Assembly (NCBI GenBank): GCA_965279375.1 | Contig: OZ257156.1 | Coordinates: forward strand, 896,001-960,000 | Reading direction: 5' to 3' | DNA length: 64,000 bases | Source: Gemmatimonas sp. | Lineage (GTDB): Bacteria > Gemmatimonadota > Gemmatimonadetes > Gemmatimonadales > Gemmatimonadaceae | Shown: positions 21,001 through 30,000 of the stretch, one piece after another | Layout: each line of letters begins with the position of its first letter | How positions within the stretch are numbered: position 1 is the first letter of the stretch | Program-made: the position numbers

Positions 21001-24000
21001 CGTGGCGCGCAGGATTCCCGTACGCCGAATCAGGCGGCGAGCTGAGAGTCGTTGAGTGTGAGGCACTGGTAGGCCGCGTGGATCGTGGCCGCGTCCACGC
21101 CGCCCATGAGGCGTGCTTCGCGACAGAGACCACGAACGCACTCGCGGGCGATCGCTCGCGAATCGTCGTTGACGCGCTCTGCGTCCCACGTCGGTAGGAG
21201 CTCGTGCGACACCGCGACAACGCCGCCGCCGGAAACAATGGGATCGGGGATGAACACAATGCCAACGGCCGTGAACTCCTGAAGCAGCGCGTCGCCGCGA
21301 TGCTCGATCGAGCCGAGTTGGTCGTTGCCGGCGCCGAGGATCAGGCGAACGCGTGCGCCCGCGCGGCGAGCCGCGGCCAGGATCTCACCTCGGGTGCGCA
21401 GATCGCCGACGGGGCGCGTGCCTAGGAAATCGGTGCCTCCTCCGTTCGGGCTGACGACCTCGACCGTCGGATCTTCGAGCGCGGCAACCTCAGAGTCGAA
21501 GACGCTGCCACGCTCGACCAATCGGCGCAGCAGCGCCAGGTGGCGCTCTTCATCGACCTCGCCGCCGCGCGCCTTTGTGGCACGATAGAGACGATCCGCG
21601 GAATCGAGGGACGGATCGAGTTGCGGATCGAACACAACGACGTCGGCGCCAGCGCGATCGAGCAGGTACGCGAGAGGGAGACCAACCTTGCCGAGACCAA
21701 GAACGAGCACCCGAACCTCATCCAAGGATGTCTGGCCCTGCAGCTCCTCGATCGTCTCGAGCAGGCCCGCCTTCACGCCTTCCGCTGTCGCCTCACCAGT
21801 GTCACGTCCGCACTTGAGGCCGATCGTGTAATCGGTGAGGGAGTTCATCAGTTCCAGGTCCGCGTGACTCAGGCCCTGATCAAGCGAGCCAAGGTAGTCG
21901 CCAGCAATGAAGTTCAGGAGCGCCGCATGCGCGCGAAGGCGAGCCTCTCCCACGCCGGTGCCACCGGGGCCGAGTTTGTGCTCCGCAGGAACCCAGATCG
22001 TCCCCTTGCCTCCGGCCCACGAGTAGTGCCGCACGTCGGGTCCCAAGCGGCACGCCGCTCCATAGATGAGCGTCGTCTTGGCGTCCATGGCCCGCGCGAG
22101 CGCCCCAGCGGTGCGCAAGGCATGGGTGTGATCAGGGCACTGAACGATCCGGGTGCCACCAAGACCGACGCGGTTACCCCCCAACGCGGTCTTCGAGACG
22201 ACGACCGAGCTGTAGATCCGGGCGTCGGGGGCGACCGAAGACCCGTTGAAGGCTTCGAAAAGGACGTAGCCGCCATCGAATCGCGCGGGACCTCGAAGTG
22301 TGAGATCCCCCTGCTGAACTTCGCGGTAGTGCATCGACATGGCCTTTCTCTCGCACGAAAAGGGTGAGCCCGAGCAAAGGACGGACGGCAGGCCAGCCGC
22401 ATCTGCGCAGGCGGTCAATCTACTTACCGCGATAATATATCATATTTATCTTCATTGCAAGAGTTTATATCGATTAAAATAGCCTAAGGTATCGAGTTGA
22501 GTGCGTTCCGCGGGGAGGCGTCGTTGGGTTTGACGGATTATCTATGGAGCTCGTAGTATTCCTTCGGGGGATTCATAGACGGGCCGATAATCGTTGGAGA
22601 GAACATGATGAATACCGAGCCGAACGGAGATAGATTTCACACCCCGTTGATGCGTGGCGCCGGGACCGGTGCGGTCCTCGCCGTTCCGGCAAGCCGTGTG
22701 GAGTGGGATCACTGTCAACGCCTTGCGGCGATCCTTCACCAGCGGTTCGACGATCCCGTGCTCACCGAAGCGGGGTTGCTGCACGGCATAGGTGCCCACG
22801 CAGTTGAACGACTCGGCGCGAGCGGAAGGCCAGAGGTCGTCGCGATTCTCGAGGATGTCGAAAAGCTTCGCGCGCTTGAGTTCCGTGACGAGGATCTGAC
22901 GGGAAGTGCTCTTCGAAACGTCTTGCCGCTTCTACGGGATCCGCGGTCCGGCGTGCTGCTGGCGTTCGACCAACTGGACCACGTCGACCCCGATCAATCC
23001 TTTAGACGATGGAGCGCAAAGTTCCACCGTCTTCCCGAGATCGGCGTGGACGCGCTTCCGAGAGAGACCGCGCATCTCGACCCGTTAGTGGAACTCGGGT
23101 CCTATCCACGATTTCTTCGCCGCGTGGTGGCTCCGGTCGCCGCACTCAGTGGATTTTGGCGCGAGCGAAATGCTCTGGATGACTGCGCAACCCTGATTTG
23201 GGACCCCGATCGTGCTAAGGACATCTCCATCGAGGTGAGGCGAGCATCGGGGGCGTGTCGACGCTTGGTTGGGGAAATTGAGGCTTCCTTTGGCGATGGA
23301 GCCGACGCTTCGGTGCTTTGGGAGTGGCGGCACCTCGGTCGGCTGGATCGAGAACTTCCGCGGTCGAACGATCAACTTGCCAGCGCTTTCGATGCACGCA
23401 TCGGAACCCTCGGCTTCGTCACGGTCGTGTGCGTGGACGAGGACGAGTGCTACCGGCTTCTAGGCCGCATTCATCGTCACTTCGAGGGGAGGGGGGAGGC
23501 GTTCCGGGACTATATCGGCAACAAGAAGGGCGACGACTACCGTGCGCTCCACACGCGCGTGGGTCGCCAAGGAGCGGGACGCGGTCCGCGAGAGATCTCC
23601 ATCCGCTTGATTTCCCGAAGTGATGACTTGAAACGAAGCCAGCCGGCTCGACGGTGGCATGATCTGCGCCCGACGAATCCCGCCGGTCCGATGCGCGTGT
23701 TCACCCTCCACGGCGACCCGGTCGATCTTCAGCCGGGTGCTACTGTGGCTGCGTTCGCGGTCGAGGTACACGACGCTCTGCTATTCTACGCGATCGGCGC
23801 CCGGGTCAACCGTCGAACGGTCGAGCTAAACTACAAGTTGTCGCCCGGCGACGTCGTTGAAGTGCTAAAGAGCGAGCGGCTGCAGCCGCTTCCGTCTACT
23901 TGGAAGACTTGGATCCCCGAGATTCTGCCGCAGTCGACGACTTCGTTAAGGGAGTCGACGCCGAACCCAACGCATCGAAGAGTGCGAAAGGCGTATAAAC

Positions 24001-27000: not shown

Positions 27001-30000
27001 GAAGGCGCGGTGGTCGCCGGTTCGGGATCGACGACTCGCATCGTCAGTCTAAGCGGTCGTTCATGGCAACTCGCGCGTGTGCTCTATGACAACGCGGGGA
27101 AACCGCTGGCGCCCGACGAACTAAATCGACTGCTCGGAGAATTGGTGACCGAAACAGGAAAGCCATTCGTCGTTCACGCCGCGCTCCAACGACTCAGGTC
27201 TTCATTGAAGAACGAGCTGCCGAATCTACTACAAACACATCGCGGCAGCGGATACCTGTTTGACGTACCGCAGCTGCGAGATTACTCCAGGCGACCCAGT
27301 GCTTGACATAGCGCCGTGCACGAGACCCTTCAGAAAGTCTGCTGAGAACGAGGCCCAAATCATTGGTGGCGGGCGCTACACCGGTCGCTGCGGCGCGGTT
27401 GTGGTTTGTCGACCCTCGCCCCATCGAGCCTACCTTAGCAATTCCGCGCTCACTTTCTTGGCGGCGATTTTGGCCAGCTCGCTTGGAACGCGAGACTTCG
27501 AAACGCCTAACCGTCGCTGTTCGGCTCTGCCTGTGCCCTGCGACTAGACCCCGTGCGAGCGGGAATCCGGTACGAGTCCCGCTCGCCCGCGACGTGAAGG
27601 TGTTCTACTATCCTGGCGTTACAATAGAGGTGGTTTTGCGCTGCTGGGGGTGCGAGAGGACGACGGGCCGGTATTCGCGCACCGTAGGACGTCCCGAACG
27701 TGGGCTTCGCTATGTCTGTTACGGTGAATGGCGCCGCCTAACGATTGCGTTCGCTTGCAGGGCCCTTCCATAGGATGCCGACAGTGAGCACAGCGAACAG
27801 TCGGCAGTCCGTGAAGGCCCTGTCAAGCGCAACGCCGGGTTAGACCGCAGCAACGCTGACGGTGCTAGTTGGGCGAGAGCGCGGCGAGGACCCGCCGTAA
27901 GATGTCCTCGGAGCGGCGCTGGCCGTAGGGGCGGCCGTAGGCGCTGGAGCTGATCGCCAGCACTGCGTCGTACGCGGGGATGACGTAGATCTTGTTGCCG
28001 CCGTTGCCCGACGCGAAGTGCACCGTGACGTGGCGGTCGCCGAGCGCATAAGTCTTCGTGTACCACAGGTAGCCATAGCTGTCCGCGTAGCGGTCGACCG
28101 CGCCGATGGACACGGAAGGGGCGAGGGCGTGGGCAATCCAGGCGCTGTCCACGAGTTGTTGCCCACCGGCACGCCCGTGGCGCAGCACCAACTCGCCAAT
28201 CGCGACCATATCCCGCACGCGGATCGACAGATTGCCTTGGCCCACCCCTTCGCCCCGCGGCCCGCGACGCCACGCAAATCGGGGCACGCCGAGCGGCCGA
28301 AACAGGACGCGGTTGGCGAAGTCCGCCAGCGGCGCCTGCGCCTGTTGCTCGACCACCCGCCCCGCGAGGAAGGCCGTGAGCGAGGAATAGACGTAGCGCT
28401 CGCCCGGGGGCGACGCCATCGGGACCGCGCGGACGAAGGCCATCCAATCCGGACTGTCGTCGAGACGGGTCTCATTTCCGCGCGCCAGCGAGTCCTCGTC
28501 GTCGGCGTCGAGTCCGGCGCGCATGGTAAGGAGATCGCGGAGACGAATGCGCTGCTGCGCGGGGGTCAGACTCCCTGGCAGGAGCGCGCCCAGGGGAGCG
28601 TCGAGCGTCTGGAGTGCCTGCGGTCCGAGGGCGATGCCGACCAGCAGCGCGGTAATGCTCTTGGTCGCCGACCGGATATCGTGCAACGTGGCGACCGCGT
28701 CGCCATTGAAGTACTGCTCGGCGACGCGTTGGCCATGCTGCTGCACGACCACGCCCTTCAGATCGCGGACCGAGTCCGCGCGATAGGACTGCAGGACGCG
28801 ATCGAGCGCCGGGCGGACCGCGCGCGCCGCGCGTTGGTGGGCCGTGTCGCTCGCCGGCACCCGTCGCCGCACGAGCGAATCACGCACTTGGGCGTGCAGT
28901 GGCTGGGATGACAATCCGCACCACAGGACGAAGCCCAGCACGACACGCGCACAGCGCAGGCGAGGTTCGACGCGGCGAAGGGTAGGCATGCTCGCTCGGA
29001 CGTGCGCGCCGACGGAAAAGTTTGAAGAGCTGCGGTCTAACCCGCTTTCACCTGCACCCCTCAACAGAGCGAATCAATATCGCTCCAACCCTCGGCATGA
29101 CGACTGTAATCGCGCGGCAGTCGGCCCACATCGCACACGCCCGTTATCGCGCAGTCGTCGGATCCTGCTCACGGCGCAAATTCTCAGTCACCTGCCCCAG
29201 GCACAACTCTCCACCCCGCATCCAACAACGGAACCGTCGCCGCCGCCGGCCCTCCGTCACGCGCACGCCCATGAATCTCCGCGCGTAGTACTGCCCCCGG
29301 CGACAGCAACACTGCTTGTATGAGCTCCTTCGCAACGCCGCCGAGCGGCACCTTCGCACGCCGCGACCACGGTGACGGCGGTCCGCCAGCGTACTGGCCG
29401 GCGTTGATGTACACGAACCGCCCCGCCGGTGGCCCCTGCACCTCGGGGCCCTTCAACACGAGCACACCGTCCGCGCGTACTACCGCTTCCACACGCAACT
29501 CGAACGTGACGCTATCGTCTGCGACGTGCATGGGCTCCACCAGCTCGAATCGTCCGCGCTGCATGCGCAGTTGGACCTCGGGATGTGGCGCACGCACCAC
29601 CACCTGCAACGTCAACGTGTCGGCCATCGTCATTCCTGTCGATGTGCGAGAAACTGACTTCGCAGCGAGCACCCTTGCGACCAATTCTCGTGGCGAGTCG
29701 CTAAACCTCTCTTTCCCATCGCCGCGAATCGAGCGCCGTTCGTCACCCGCTGTTCCGCAGCCCCGCGCTGATGCCGTTGATGGTCAGGTGAATGCCACGC
29801 TCCAGTCGCTCATCCAACGGCTCCCCACGCGCTTCCGCGTTGCGGAGCCGTTGCAGCATGGCAATCTGCAGATGGTTCAGTGGATCCATGTACGGAAAGC
29901 GATTGGCGATCGAGCGCGCCAACAGTCGGTTGTCCACCAGAAACCGCGACTGTCCCGTAATCGACCACAGCGCCTCCTTGCTGCGATGCCACTCGGCTTC

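Follow-up and report, generated by a model that had tools for sequence, protein, structure and literature searches.

A long RelA/SpoT homolog lacking catalytic residues, fused to a STAND-type NTPase and paired with a winged-helix partner in Gemmatimonas sp.

In genuine stringent factors, the regulatory half (TGS, helical, zinc-finger, and ACT domains) reads the 3′ end of uncharged tRNA, the ribosome, and sometimes amino acids, and the C-terminal half of RelA acts dominant-negatively. Transcription factors are well known among STAND NTPases that carry a DNA-binding domain (MalT and AfsR, for instance), and a winged helix of OmpR type usually provides sequence-specific output. One study terms bacterial STANDs NTP-dependent transcriptional regulators (PMC7159879), and another gives the tripartite STAND order as effector-NOD-sensor (PMC13581612). 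A preprint reports fungal NLRs in which a RelA_SpoT domain sits at the N terminus as effector (10.1101/2022.03.16.484565).

Here, we describe two adjacent genes, A and B, in a 64,000-nt stretch of Gemmatimonas sp. contig OZ257156.1 (the window, along which all positions are counted). A survey's finding had placed them in an undescribed family, and we likewise found no description of the module in the literature. Our preferred reading, still tentative at roughly 45% probability, is that A and B form a sensor/helper STAND NTPase pair that senses the state of tRNAs, ribosomes, or amino acids and responds by driving transcription. Both open reading frames were confirmed where the survey had called them, with the start of B overlapping the end of A by 8 nt, and their parts are as follows:

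22605-25946, forward strand: gene A (g00709), 1113 aa, an apparently dead long RelA/SpoT homolog (RSH) region plus a STAND-type NTPase (ORF, Pfam, AlphaFold2, Foldseek, family search)
22692-23084, forward strand: pseudo-hydrolase (HD) domain of A, residues ~30-160 (family alignment columns)
23097-23639, forward strand: pseudo-synthetase domain of A, residues ~165-345, with motif W-E-W-[RH]-H at 239-243 (family columns, Pfam RelA_SpoT)
23688-23879, forward strand: TGS domain of A, residues 362-425 (Pfam, conservation)
23967-24314, forward strand: helical domain of A, residues ~455-570 (AlphaFold2 helices, RelA/SpoT structural alignment)
24336-24458, forward strand: zinc-finger domain of A, residues ~578-618, with C585, C588, H608, and C614 (family conservation)
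24486-24704, forward strand: ACT/RRM domain of A, residues ~628-700 (sub-threshold Pfam ACT, ACT_4 of sister proteins, conservation)
24840-25943, forward strand: STAND-type NTPase module of A (NBD, helical domain, winged helix), residues 746-1113 (AAA_16, Walker motifs, fold)
25939-27306, forward strand: gene B (g00710), 455 aa, a STAND-type NTPase (~25-340) plus a C-terminal OmpR/PhoB-type winged helix (369-441) (Pfam, AlphaFold2, Foldseek, partner alignment)

The full long-RSH domain series that the survey had assigned to A was borne out by Pfam, the structural model, and Foldseek. Pfam scores exceeded their cut-offs for TGS (residues 363-422, 41.3 bits against 22.2, E 1.6e-10), AAA_16 (746-883, 35.5 bits against 32.6), and RelA_SpoT (273-336, 31.8 bits against 27); ACT (634-692, 21 bits against 27, E 2.9e-4) and ATPase_2 (22 bits against 33.2) were sub-threshold, and ACT_4 was above cut-off in sister proteins. 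Remodeling A with AlphaFold2 (61-row alignment, pLDDT 86.1, pTM 0.61) gave nearly the same fold matches as before: RelA (5kpv, E 1e-20, 718 columns; 5iqr, E 2e-20, 712 columns), SpoT (7qpr, 747-753 columns), Orc1/Cdc6, and the archaeal ATPases 2qen (TMt 0.72) and 2fna (TMt 0.66). The helical domain, modeled as helices at residues 455-486, 495-508, 520-532, and 547-569, aligned within the RelA/SpoT matches (712-753 columns). The C-terminal ATPase with its winged helix was also reproduced, although it is better described as STAND-type than as Orc1/Cdc6 proper, given the GxP-like motif (T-x-G-N-P, residues 970-974), the NLR and Apaf-1 fold matches of B, and the nSTAND1 matches of the NTPases of some relatives.

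For B, the survey's picture of an AAA domain with an OmpR-type winged helix held, with Trans_reg_C above its cut-off (residues 369-441, 30.0 bits against 26.2) and both AAA (20.4 bits against 21.2) and ORC-CDC6-like (18.9 against 27) just below theirs. Among homologs of B, Trans_reg_C fell just short of 26.2 bits at locus L009 and exceeded it at L010. The AlphaFold2 model of B (pLDDT 76.2) matched ORC/Cdc6, Apaf-1, CED-4, and plant NLRs, and an alignment of eight partners showed invariant G52, K53, D110, P178, W179, G216-P219, R418, G438, and Y439. In an hhalign comparison, A and B proved to have paralogous NTPase modules (89.4%, E 2.1e-6, 171 columns). A homolog of B lay directly 3′ of A at all 10 other loci examined (11 of 11 with this genome), three of which (L006, L012, and L013) were left out when the B profile was built. 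An exhaustive HMMER search returned 117 representatives of the A family at E ≤ 1e-30, nearly all of them ~1,100 aa long and alignable over their full length. They span several phyla and their reading frames are intact, in keeping with the widely scattered two-gene family that the survey had proposed.

Catalytic motifs were compared in one alignment of 100 full-length family members and nine canonical Rel proteins; the counts that follow are per 100 family rows. The first His of the hydrolase is retained in 83, while in place of HD the family has H (78) and then G (68) or A (10), the ED pair falls in gap columns in 87, and the D of the ADRLHN region is E (64) or D (19). In the synthetase, G-R-x-K-H reads W239 (98), E (76), W241 (95), R (51) or H (41), and H (85), and the acidic D is replaced by R, L, and others, followed by G (96) and T (62). 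At the first position of E-x-Q-x-R-T, 60 rows have a gap, and E is not among the six commonest residues. The motif losses listed by the survey therefore stand for the family, except that A itself keeps the E and R of this last motif. Judged by sequence, the hydrolase and synthetase of A are without the residues to make or break (p)ppGpp.

These losses could also mark A as a decaying rel duplicate, fused by chance and with no function of its own, and A is only 26% identical to the genome's ordinary Rel, a separate gene (726 aa, canonical motifs) as the survey had noted. This explanation is contradicted by the conservation data: the 117 full-length, intact representatives, family-specific invariant residues, invariant Walker motifs, a strictly retained partner gene, and the confident fold of A. 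We give it next to no credence.

Some of the synthetase domain has been kept, including the G-Y-x-x-L-H-T stretch (Y312 in 94 rows, H316 in 85, and T317 in 92) and R334 (78). We take these to be guanine-region residues, and W239 and W241 to replace the R and K that bind the ATP phosphates, presumably as in the RelSeq structure. The N-terminal half could then be a re-purposed ligand pocket or enzyme, and A a nucleotide receptor feeding the NTPase switch, with an alarmone or other nucleotide ((p)ppGpp, (p)ppApp, or a defense second messenger) bound at W-E-W-[RH]-H and the kept guanine-region residues. In line with this, the N-terminal half is conserved like the NTPase (7-9% against 10% of columns at least 80% conserved), and a sister group retains the HD dyad and P-K-x-N-G-Y-x-x-L-H-T. 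However, the metal-binding acidic residues are lost, and some natural variants lack the N-terminal domains but retain everything from TGS to NTPase (G009, 750 aa; P0125, P0133, P0153, and P0158, 737-772 aa). The pseudo-enzymatic half is thus dispensable and the core function independent of any such pocket, making a nucleotide receptor very unlikely. Still, the half that bears the near-invariant W-E-W must have some role that our preferred translation-status model leaves out, which counts against that model.

The survey's statement that TGS, zinc finger, and ACT are kept agrees with family conservation. TGS is the best-conserved domain of A (22% of columns at least 80% conserved), the zinc ligands persist (C in 97 rows, C in 97, H in 97, and C in 93), and the ACT region carries R673 in all 100 rows and G641 in 92. 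C585, C588, and H608 are invariant in alignment A1 and C614 in the 10-row alignment A2, as are Walker A G783/K784/S786 and Walker B D873/E874 across 61 rows. This pattern, together with the natural variants that lack the N-terminal domains, suggests purifying selection on the non-catalytic parts of A, namely TGS, the zinc ligands, R673, and Walker A/B. The TGS His (query position 389) occurs in just 63 rows, which does not sit easily with translation-status sensing. The helical domain is the least conserved part, and positive charge per 100 residues is lower in A than in the nine canonical Rel proteins in both the helical (+0.9 vs. +3.2) and zinc-finger (+2.2 vs. +6.3) parts, weakening the case for canonical rRNA contacts.

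A full ribosome-binding series kept without catalysis would also fit the opposite polarity, in which B senses a DNA feature through its winged helix and A is the effector. Assembled A would occupy ribosomal A sites or tRNA, or compete with the cell's Rel, and so block translation or damp the stringent response. The domain orders of A and B match effector-NOD and NOD-sensor logic, and there are precedents in the fungal NLRs and in the dominant-negative RelA C-terminal half. Yet a blocker that acts stoichiometrically makes a poor effector, the OmpR-type winged helix of B belongs to a class that usually serves as output, and the lowered positive charge argues against it as well, so we consider reversed polarity distinctly improbable. 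The forms without N-terminal domains do not discriminate between this model and the translation-status reading. The usual STAND order, with N-terminal effector and C-terminal sensor, is the reverse of the one that translation-status sensing by A implies.

The module is rare and patchy: it occurs in 1 of 24 congeners and, in two phylum samples of 401 genomes each, in two genomes and one genome, respectively. Such a distribution is odd for a housekeeping-type regulator. The G+C of A-B (0.56-0.58) is below that of the flanks (0.60-0.70). Mobile-element markers (type IV secretion genes, integrase, transposase, or rve fragment) were close by in 4 of 11 loci. Neighbors included a TIR protein (L010), an adjoining AbiEi/AbiEii system with an integrase (L009), type IV secretion genes (L008), Uma2/PDC-S03 (L013), PDC-S70 (L014), and, in the window, a CHAT-type protein and an rve fragment. 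The mobile markers and AbiE would suit a defense island as well as they suit any accessory gene.

These features raise the alternative of an anti-phage or abortive-infection STAND system in which A guards the translation apparatus. The trigger would be phage damage to, or hijacking of, ribosomes or tRNA, or else the docking of a phage protein on the Rel-like surface, and A and B would then oligomerize and either shut down the cell or turn on a variable neighboring effector. The predicted NLR-, Apaf-1-, and CED-4-like fold of B and the nSTAND1 matches of relatives, a clade defined in counter-invader systems (PMC8195603), point the same way. By contrast, no PADLOC model matched A or B, and searches of phage, plasmid, and viral-contig collections gave no match. 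Of 111 neighbor proteins, 12 matched PADLOC at ≤ 1e-10, mostly generically (kinase, methyltransferase, cNMP-binding, and ankyrin), and AbiE was the only complete known system among them. The A-B pair also has no conserved enzymatic effector, its only conserved output-type domain being the DNA-binding winged helix. We regard a defense role as rather unlikely.

In the window, A is divergent from a string of three genes:

22419-22604, no strand: AT-rich intergenic region of 186 bp between the dehydrogenase operon and A, a candidate control region (sequence)
21030-22418, reverse strand: Leu/Phe/Trp-type amino-acid dehydrogenase-like gene, 462 aa, divergent neighbor of A (Pfam, PDB match)
18513-20978, reverse strand: second, accessory LeuRS, 821 aa (leuS_bact, HIGH/KMSKS)
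16069-18495, reverse strand: 2-oxoacid dehydrogenase E1 with alpha and beta fused, 808 aa, at the end of the string (Pfam)

The dehydrogenase-like protein matched ELFV_dehydrog (E 7.1e-7) and leucine dehydrogenase 6acf in the PDB (E 2.8e-12, in an alignment that includes the G-G-K motif). Its gene was not found in any of 30 congeners and is thus co-accessory with A-B. The accessory LeuRS (leuS_bact 907.6 bits against 548.4; HIGH and KMSKS present) is 44% identical to the genome's other LeuRS and 42-44% identical to the single LeuRS of each of five congeners, and the E1 protein (E1_dh, Transket_pyr, Transketolase_C) has only 29-39% identical paralogs in congeners. The intergenic region holds one promoter-like site per strand, and a scan of 22300-27900 gave two sites vs. 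1.6 expected by chance, which is not significant; no direct repeats were found within 22419-22604.

Across loci, amino-acid- or tRNA-linked genes were divergent to A in 3 of 11: the window, L006 from a distant phylum (a ScyB-like Trp-DH, E 2.4e-58), and G009 (an amino-acid hydroxylase-like gene and a PheRS-beta B3_4 domain protein). The ELFV-type dehydrogenase that the survey had seen upstream here and in one relative is present in the window and L006. Elsewhere, the divergent neighbor differs (L010 has a TIR protein there, L007 a protein kinase), so a single regulon is not a family trait.

Under the translation-status reading, A would be a domesticated long RSH whose regulatory half is wired to a C-terminal nucleotide-binding oligomerization module. 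Its Rel-derived part may bind deacylated tRNA, a stalled ribosome, or a branched-chain or aromatic amino acid, which would free the NTPase for ADP-to-ATP exchange. A could then co-assemble with B through their paralogous modules, and clustered B winged helices would bind DNA and turn on neighboring genes. The likely target here would be the accessory operon divergent to A, which encodes the amino-acid dehydrogenase, the second LeuRS, and the E1 2-oxoacid dehydrogenase; its amino-acid dehydrogenase gene is possibly regulated by A-B. The survey's functional picture of an NTPase switch with Rel-derived sensor and DNA-binding output remains, we infer, the best supported, strengthened by the NTPase paralogy, B after A in 11 of 11 loci, and the accessory, recurring ELFV-type dehydrogenase neighbor. 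To that picture, our analysis adds the paralogy, the pairing at 10 other loci, the rarity, the N-terminally lacking forms, the HD-keeping sister group, and the accessory divergent operon.

This rare module thus joins an apparently dead copy of Rel to an ATP-driven switch of the immune-receptor type and to a related DNA-binding switch protein, and it probably signals problems in translation without using the customary alarmone. In fungal NLRs, the RelA_SpoT domain is N-terminal and serves as effector, and in A the dead Rel region is likewise N-terminal to the NTPase.

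Genes A (g00709) and B (g00710) were found as ORFs where the survey's finding had placed them, overlap included:

22605-25946, plus strand: gene A, ORF starting with ATG, 1113 aa
25939-27306, plus strand: gene B, ORF of 455 aa, sharing 8 nt with A

In A, three Pfam families exceeded their cut-offs, namely TGS (363-422, E 1.6e-10), AAA_16 (746-883, E 1.8e-8, 35.5 vs. 32.6 bits), and RelA_SpoT (273-336, E 1.9e-7); ACT (634-692, E 2.9e-4) and ATPase_2 fell under theirs. Pfam and an AlphaFold2 model together give A the domain order of a long RelA/SpoT homologue (RSH): HD, SYNTH, TGS, helical, zinc finger, and ACT. 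Its top PDB sequence match was E. coli RelA (5iqr, E 4.6e-17), and against NCBIfam spoT_relA it scored 71.6 bits, failing the cut-off of 499.2. The separate, ordinary Rel reported for this genome was also found. It has 726 aa and canonical motifs, and A is 26% identical to it over the synthetase-TGS stretch. In B, Trans_reg_C exceeded its cut-off (369-441, E 5.4e-7, 30.0 vs. 26.2 bits), with AAA and ORC-CDC6-like slightly under theirs. Pfam placed no receiver domain (Response_reg) in B, whose N-terminus is the NTPase, and NCBIfam response-regulator equivalogs scored 12-17 bits against cut-offs of 250-420.

Foldseek comparison of the AlphaFold2 model of A (61 rows, pLDDT 86.1, pTM 0.61) with the PDB recovered ribosome-bound RelA 5kpv (E 1e-20, 718 columns) and 5iqr, as well as full-length SpoT 7qpr and B. 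subtilis Rel 6yxa; alignments to 5kpv, 5iqr, and 7qpr spanned 712-753 columns. The C-terminal part matched Orc1/Cdc6 (2v1u, 2qby) and the archaeal ATPases 2qen (TMt 0.72) and 2fna (0.66). Our own model thus reproduces the RelA/SpoT and archaeal AAA+ fold matches claimed previously. The Orc1/Cdc6 resemblance holds at the fold level only, the NCBIfam ORC1-type score being 12.1 bits against a cut-off of 311. For B, the model (8 rows, pLDDT 76.2) matched ORC/Cdc6, Apaf-1, CED-4, and plant NLRs (ZAR1 6j5t, TMq 0.47; NRC proteins). By Foldseek, the NBD-helical-winged helix fold of the STAND nucleotide-binding module (NOD) is present both in the C-terminus of A and in B.

Profile-profile comparison aligned A 767-974 with B 50-234 (89.4% probability, E 2.1e-6, 171 columns). 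In this alignment, Walker A and Walker B fell in register, as did the motifs T-x-G-N-P of A and S-G-G-H-P of B, which we take to be the GxP signature of STAND NTPases. Judged by sequence, the two NTPase modules are paralogues. Pfam nSTAND1 was absent from the matches of A itself; it exceeded its cut-off (27.1) in the sister proteins P0163 (28.7 bits), P0170 (43.5), and P0174 (43.3) and fell slightly under it in the relative at locus L009 (26.0). NACHT was slightly under cut-off in the L011 relative (25.2 vs. 26.7 bits).

A word-indexed protein search gave 30 matches to A, canonical Rel only, and for B returned B itself alone. An exhaustive HMMER search with A yielded 2432 matches at E <= 1e-3, 117 of them at E <= 1e-30. 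The top matches were almost all ~1100 aa long and aligned end to end, none more than 32% identical to A; family members are annotated at source as 'TGS domain-containing protein' or 'hypothetical protein'. We aligned A and 99 matches of 1000-1250 aa (among P0032-P0150) with the genome's own Rel and 8 canonical Rel, and motif counts are given out of these 100 family rows, compared with 9 canonical Rel. The first hydrolase His was kept in 83 rows. At the HD dyad, 78 rows had H, and the next residue was G in 68 and A in 10 (H-G in A itself); the ED pair fell in columns that were gaps in 87. The synthetase G-R-x-K-H strand had become W (98), E (76), W (95), R or H (51 and 41), and H (85). In the Y-D-x-x-A-x-R stretch, the acidic D was replaced by R, L, and others, followed by G (96) and T (62). 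Y, H, and T of G-Y-x-x-L-H-T were kept in 94, 85, and 92 rows, and R of E-x-Q-x-R-T in 78.

These are the hydrolase and synthetase substitutions that the survey's finding had listed, now seen across the family. Its claim that the EVQIRT motif is lost held in part: the E is unconserved in the family (a gap in 60 rows), but A itself has E330 and R334 at this position, E330 not being a family feature. With the catalytic residues taken to be those of the RelSeq and Rel structures, the alignment indicates that both catalytic centres of A are without their defining residues.

What the family has kept lies largely elsewhere in the protein. TGS is the best-conserved domain, with 22% of its columns at least 80% conserved vs. 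7-10% in the NTPase and in the pseudo-enzymatic half. Of the zinc ligands, C585, C588, and H608 were each retained in 97 rows and C614 in 93, and R673 of ACT in all 100, at a position where canonical Rel is variable. The TGS, Cys/His zinc site, and ACT described earlier as kept are therefore kept family-wide. Walker A (G783, K784, S786) and Walker B (D873, E874) were invariant in the 61-row alignment, and T970, G972, and P974 of the GxP-type motif were at least 90% conserved. These data indicate that the N-terminal half, which also carries its own near-invariant W-x-W strand, is not decaying, and the idea that A is a decaying duplicate, which they contradict, is scarcely credible. We also give little credence to a re-purposed nucleotide pocket around the W-E-W strand of A. 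Two features count against ribosome contacts of the fully canonical kind: the histidine of TGS was kept in only 63 rows, and net positive charge per 100 residues was lower than in the 9 canonical Rel (helical part, +0.9 vs. +3.2; zinc-finger part, +2.2 vs. +6.3).

Variants of A extend the family. In the congener genome G009, locus L119 (G009:C20, 7136-13734) encodes a 750-aa form that starts at TGS, without the N-terminal domains, and runs through the NTPase; a 510-aa partner and then, directly, a transposase follow. Database matches also include proteins of 737-772 aa resembling this short form. A sister group (P0163, P0169, P0170, P0174, P0175) has strong HD_4, RelA_SpoT, TGS, and ACT_4 matches together with nSTAND1/ATPase_2. 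In its members the HD dyad is kept, but the ED pair, R-x-K strand, and acidic D are missing; with domain scores far more canonical, the group looks like an evolutionary intermediate. Three ESM Atlas clusters (87, 63, and 53 members) have the same architecture. Given these variants, the long RSH-STAND NTPase fusion forms a wider clade, whose members have generally lost synthetase catalysis.

The module is thinly spread. The NTPase part of A occurred in 1 of 24 congeners, as the G009 variant. In a 401-genome sample of the window's phylum, with the two best candidates per genome scored, matches covering the NTPase occurred only in the window's genome G000 and in G009; the 11 other matches at E <= 1e-40 spanned only ~36-720 and were ordinary Rel. 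A sample of the phylum of L010's genome, scored in the same way, had the module in 0 of 400 other genomes. No match was found among viral contigs, phage records, or plasmid records. A metagenome scan with a TGS-derived pattern listed 80 loci and was swamped by canonical Rel, with matches ending at ~430-700. At L128 (G431:C152:26908-30222), the match to the A homologue of L010's genome contains a single TGA, which may lie upstream of the true start.

To follow the pair across genomes, we examined eleven loci: the window, the G009 locus, and nine from a species-genome scan that used a 10-row alignment of the A family as query (Acidobacteriota, Thermoanaerobaculia, Gemmatimonadetes, a Saccharimonadales-labelled MAG, Myxococcota, Proteobacteria, and Thiotrichaceae). 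Eight ORFs 3' of A align as one family with Walker A/B, P-W, G-G-H-P, and a C-terminal OmpR-like winged helix. In these 8 rows, G52, K53, D110, and G216-G217-H218-P219 are invariant, and the C-terminal A-x-Q-R-L ... G-x-G-Y-R pattern is kept throughout. The resulting profile found a partner directly 3' of A in 10 of 10 other loci, those of L012, L013, and L006 having stood outside the set used to build it. In L006 (11170-12658, Acidobacteriota MAG), the partner is split into two ORFs of 266 and 250 aa, which may be a genuine split or may stem from a frameshift or an error of assembly. All-against-all comparison of neighbours showed only A, B, an ELFV-type dehydrogenase (window and L006), and a kinase domain (L007 and L013) to recur. 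A and B together make up the conserved unit. They are without a conserved enzymatic effector, and the DNA-binding winged helix is their only conserved output-type domain.

Around this unit, the surroundings vary:

L007, divergent neighbour: protein kinase
L008, nearby: type IV secretion genes
L009, nearby: integrase and a complete AbiEi/AbiEii pair
L010, divergent neighbour: TIR protein
L013, nearby: Uma2
G009, directly 3' of the B homologue: transposase

Mobile contexts of this kind, the TIR and AbiE neighbours, and the rarity of the module would all favor a defence or abortive-infection system. At <= 1e-10, PADLOC matched 12 of the 111 neighbour proteins in the 11 loci, mostly through generic domains, with one complete AbiE system. 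No PADLOC 2.0 model matches A (best mad8, E 0.0028) or B (best PtuA, E 0.017), and relaxed Pfam searches of 21 unannotated neighbours gave no useful match. Of the two candidate functions of the pair, regulation and defence, we hold defence the less likely. Other neighbours are linked to amino acids or tRNA. Divergent from A in L006 is a ScyB-like dehydrogenase (E 2.4e-58), a homologue of the window's dehydrogenase, and the A protein there is only 30% identical to that of the window; the earlier report of an ELFV-type dehydrogenase divergently upstream here and in one relative thus stands. In G009, the divergent upstream genes encode a GntB-like amino-acid hydroxylase-family protein (592 aa) and a free-standing PheRS-beta B3_4 protein (258 aa). 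Counting the window, L006, and G009, amino-acid- or tRNA-linked genes stand head to head with A in 3 of 11 loci.

In the window itself, the genes to the left of A are:

11334-14990, minus strand: CHAT + DUF7379 protein, 1218 aa, with a PADLOC SAVED_CHAT-like match (E 4.6e-13)
15196-15522, plus strand: rve_2 integrase-core fragment, left of the string formed by the next three genes
16069-18495, minus strand: fused E1 alpha-beta 2-oxoacid dehydrogenase, 808 aa, a divergent extra copy
18513-20978, minus strand: LeuRS2, a complete second LeuRS (leuS_bact 907.6 bits vs. a cut-off of 548.4; HIGH and KMSKS present)
21030-22418, minus strand: Leu/Phe/Trp-type amino-acid dehydrogenase-like gene (leucine dehydrogenase 6acf, E 2.8e-12, with the G-G-K motif aligned)

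The dehydrogenase, LeuRS2, and E1 form a tightly spaced string with gaps of 51 and 17 nt, and all three are accessory. The dehydrogenase was found in none of 30 congeners, and the E1 paralogues of 5 congeners are only 29-39% identical; for fused E1 genes of congeners the range is 31-39%. LeuRS2 is 44% identical to the genome's other LeuRS (contig 2383723-2386143), 42-44% to the LeuRS of 5 congeners, all of which have just one, 62-63% to the two LeuRS genes of the Thermoanaerobaculia MAG G430, and 41-50% in the other genomes checked. It was probably acquired horizontally and may serve as a back-up or as an inhibitor-resistant copy. Having two LeuRS is not characteristic of the family: of 9 other genomes with the module, only G430 has two, and neither adjoins the module.

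The CHAT protein and the rve_2 fragment may represent a conflict-system gene in its own right and mark the left boundary of the accessory region. Adjoining the CHAT gene at 8024-11282 (minus strand) are three consecutive ORFs of 297, 251, and 516 aa with no Pfam family. To the right of A-B lie a beta-lactamase-family gene and PEP carboxylase, whose orthologues in some congeners are 60-73% identical. Following B, an ORF of 136 aa (27363-27773, plus strand) has no family match at E <= 0.05 and may be non-coding; a weak terminator-like hairpin is located at 27382-27401. Farther right, 35093-39002 (plus strand) encodes a 1076-aa Ser/Thr kinase with TPR repeats and then an ankyrin-repeat protein. 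The G+C content of A-B (0.56-0.58) is lower than that of its flanks, and no flanking repeats mark the island border, the repeats found being short and probably due to chance. The 186-bp spacer (22419-22604) is AT-rich and has one promoter-like site per strand, a count not above chance, and no direct repeats that could be candidate B sites. Rfam found nothing over 14000-30000, so no T-box or leader precedes LeuRS2, and the whole window has no tRNA genes.

We favor, at a probability of about 0.45, a sensor/helper STAND NTPase pair in which the status of translation or of amino acids is sensed by the Rel-derived half of A, and B gives the transcriptional output. The NTPase switch with Rel-derived sensor and DNA-binding output proposed in the survey's finding is supported and remains the leading hypothesis. 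The dehydrogenase-LeuRS2-E1 string, divergent from A, is its likely target in this genome. A bolder form of the idea, to which we give some chance but which we hold rather unlikely, is a (p)ppGpp-independent 'stringent' pathway, with a stringent factor that lost its enzymology rebuilt as the receptor of a bacterial NLR-like sensor/helper pair. Under this bolder model, A would read deacylated tRNA, ribosome-bound or free, through its TGS-to-ACT region; its STAND module would switch to ATP and recruit the paralogous helper B, whose OmpR-type winged helices would turn on rescue genes. Here, these would be the horizontally acquired back-up LeuRS, the Leu-type dehydrogenase, and the E1 2-oxoacid dehydrogenase.

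In the textbook view, it is through long RSH enzymes that uncharged tRNA on the ribosome is coupled to the alarmone (p)ppGpp. In A, the whole sensing apparatus appears to be under selection, with both catalytic centres replaced and an NLR-like ATP switch and DNA-binding helper coupled to it. If our reading is true, the regulatory half of Rel is a portable sensor able to drive an output other than alarmone synthesis, and the STAND repertoire gains a new sensor-domain type and a bacterial sensor/helper pair. A-B would also be a compact two-gene system for asking what TGS-to-ACT recognizes without catalytic interference, and the link to LeuRS2 and leucine-type catabolic or anabolic enzymes suggests a concrete, testable physiological read-out in this genome.

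Compared with long RSH enzymes, A has the complete HD-SYNTH-TGS-helical-zinc finger-ACT order and the corresponding full-length fold match. RelA has lost the hydrolase alone, according to one survey (PMC3153485), whereas A is without the residues of both centres. The available text of that survey and of a second (PMC7229694) describes no such RSH-NTPase subgroup. Further differences are the ~410 extra C-terminal residues of A, which form the NTPase, and its coexistence with a normal Rel.

STAND transcription factors include MalT, AfsR/SARP, and LAL regulators, and AfsR has its DNA-binding domain at the N-terminus. In common with them, A-B joins a DNA-binding domain to a P-loop NOD that has Walker A/B and a GxP-like motif, and by analogy it may share their NTP-driven oligomerization logic. 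B likewise has the MalT/LAL order of NOD and then C-terminal DNA-binding domain, whereas its OmpR-type domain differs in position from that of AfsR. MalT, AfsR, and LAL proteins are single proteins with TPR or SUPR repeats as sensor; A-B divides sensor and DNA-binding output between two paralogous NOD proteins, and its sensor is a whole dead stringent factor. B also has the Trans_reg_C winged helix of OmpR/PhoB response regulators, but not their N-terminal receiver domain.

Sensor/helper NLR pairs are known from NAIP-NLRC4 and from plants. Like these and the bacterial Avs/bNACHT defence STANDs, A-B consists of two co-encoded paralogous STAND modules with a patchy, accessory distribution, and the fold of B matches Apaf-1, CED-4, ZAR1, and NRC. 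Unlike them, it has no fused death, nuclease, TIR, or protease effector and no PADLOC match. The terms RelA_SpoT, TGS, and Trans_reg_C do not occur in the accessible supplementary files of a 2026 STAND survey (PMC13581612). RSH-derived domains outside the classical stringent response are shared with toxic small alarmone synthetases and fused CapRel-type defence proteins, which keep an active alarmone synthetase, whereas A has lost the active site and is without an antitoxin-like partner. Some toxic synthetases pyrophosphorylate tRNA. In PMC7229694, toxic small alarmone synthetases are described as RSH domains in small mobile operons outside the classical response.

A RelA/SpoT-type domain N-terminal to a STAND NTPase also links A to a group of fungal NLRs. 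Those proteins are known only with a synthetase-type domain, read as an enzymatic effector, whereas A is a whole long-RSH series, dead, with a separate DNA-binding partner. The fungal arrangement has been reported as an effector class (preprint 10.1101/2022.03.16.484565), and is the nearest precedent. Together with the usual STAND domain order, it would favor a reversed polarity, in which DNA would be sensed by B while A would act on ribosomes, on tRNA, or on the resident Rel; we think this improbable. The fusion itself was not found in the accessible text of RSH surveys (PMC3153485, PMC7229694), conflict-system papers (PMC7159879, PMC8195603), or the STAND survey (PMC13581612), nor elsewhere in the full-text literature searched, a body that excludes most subscription journals and bioRxiv supplements; within that scope, the family is undescribed, as first proposed.
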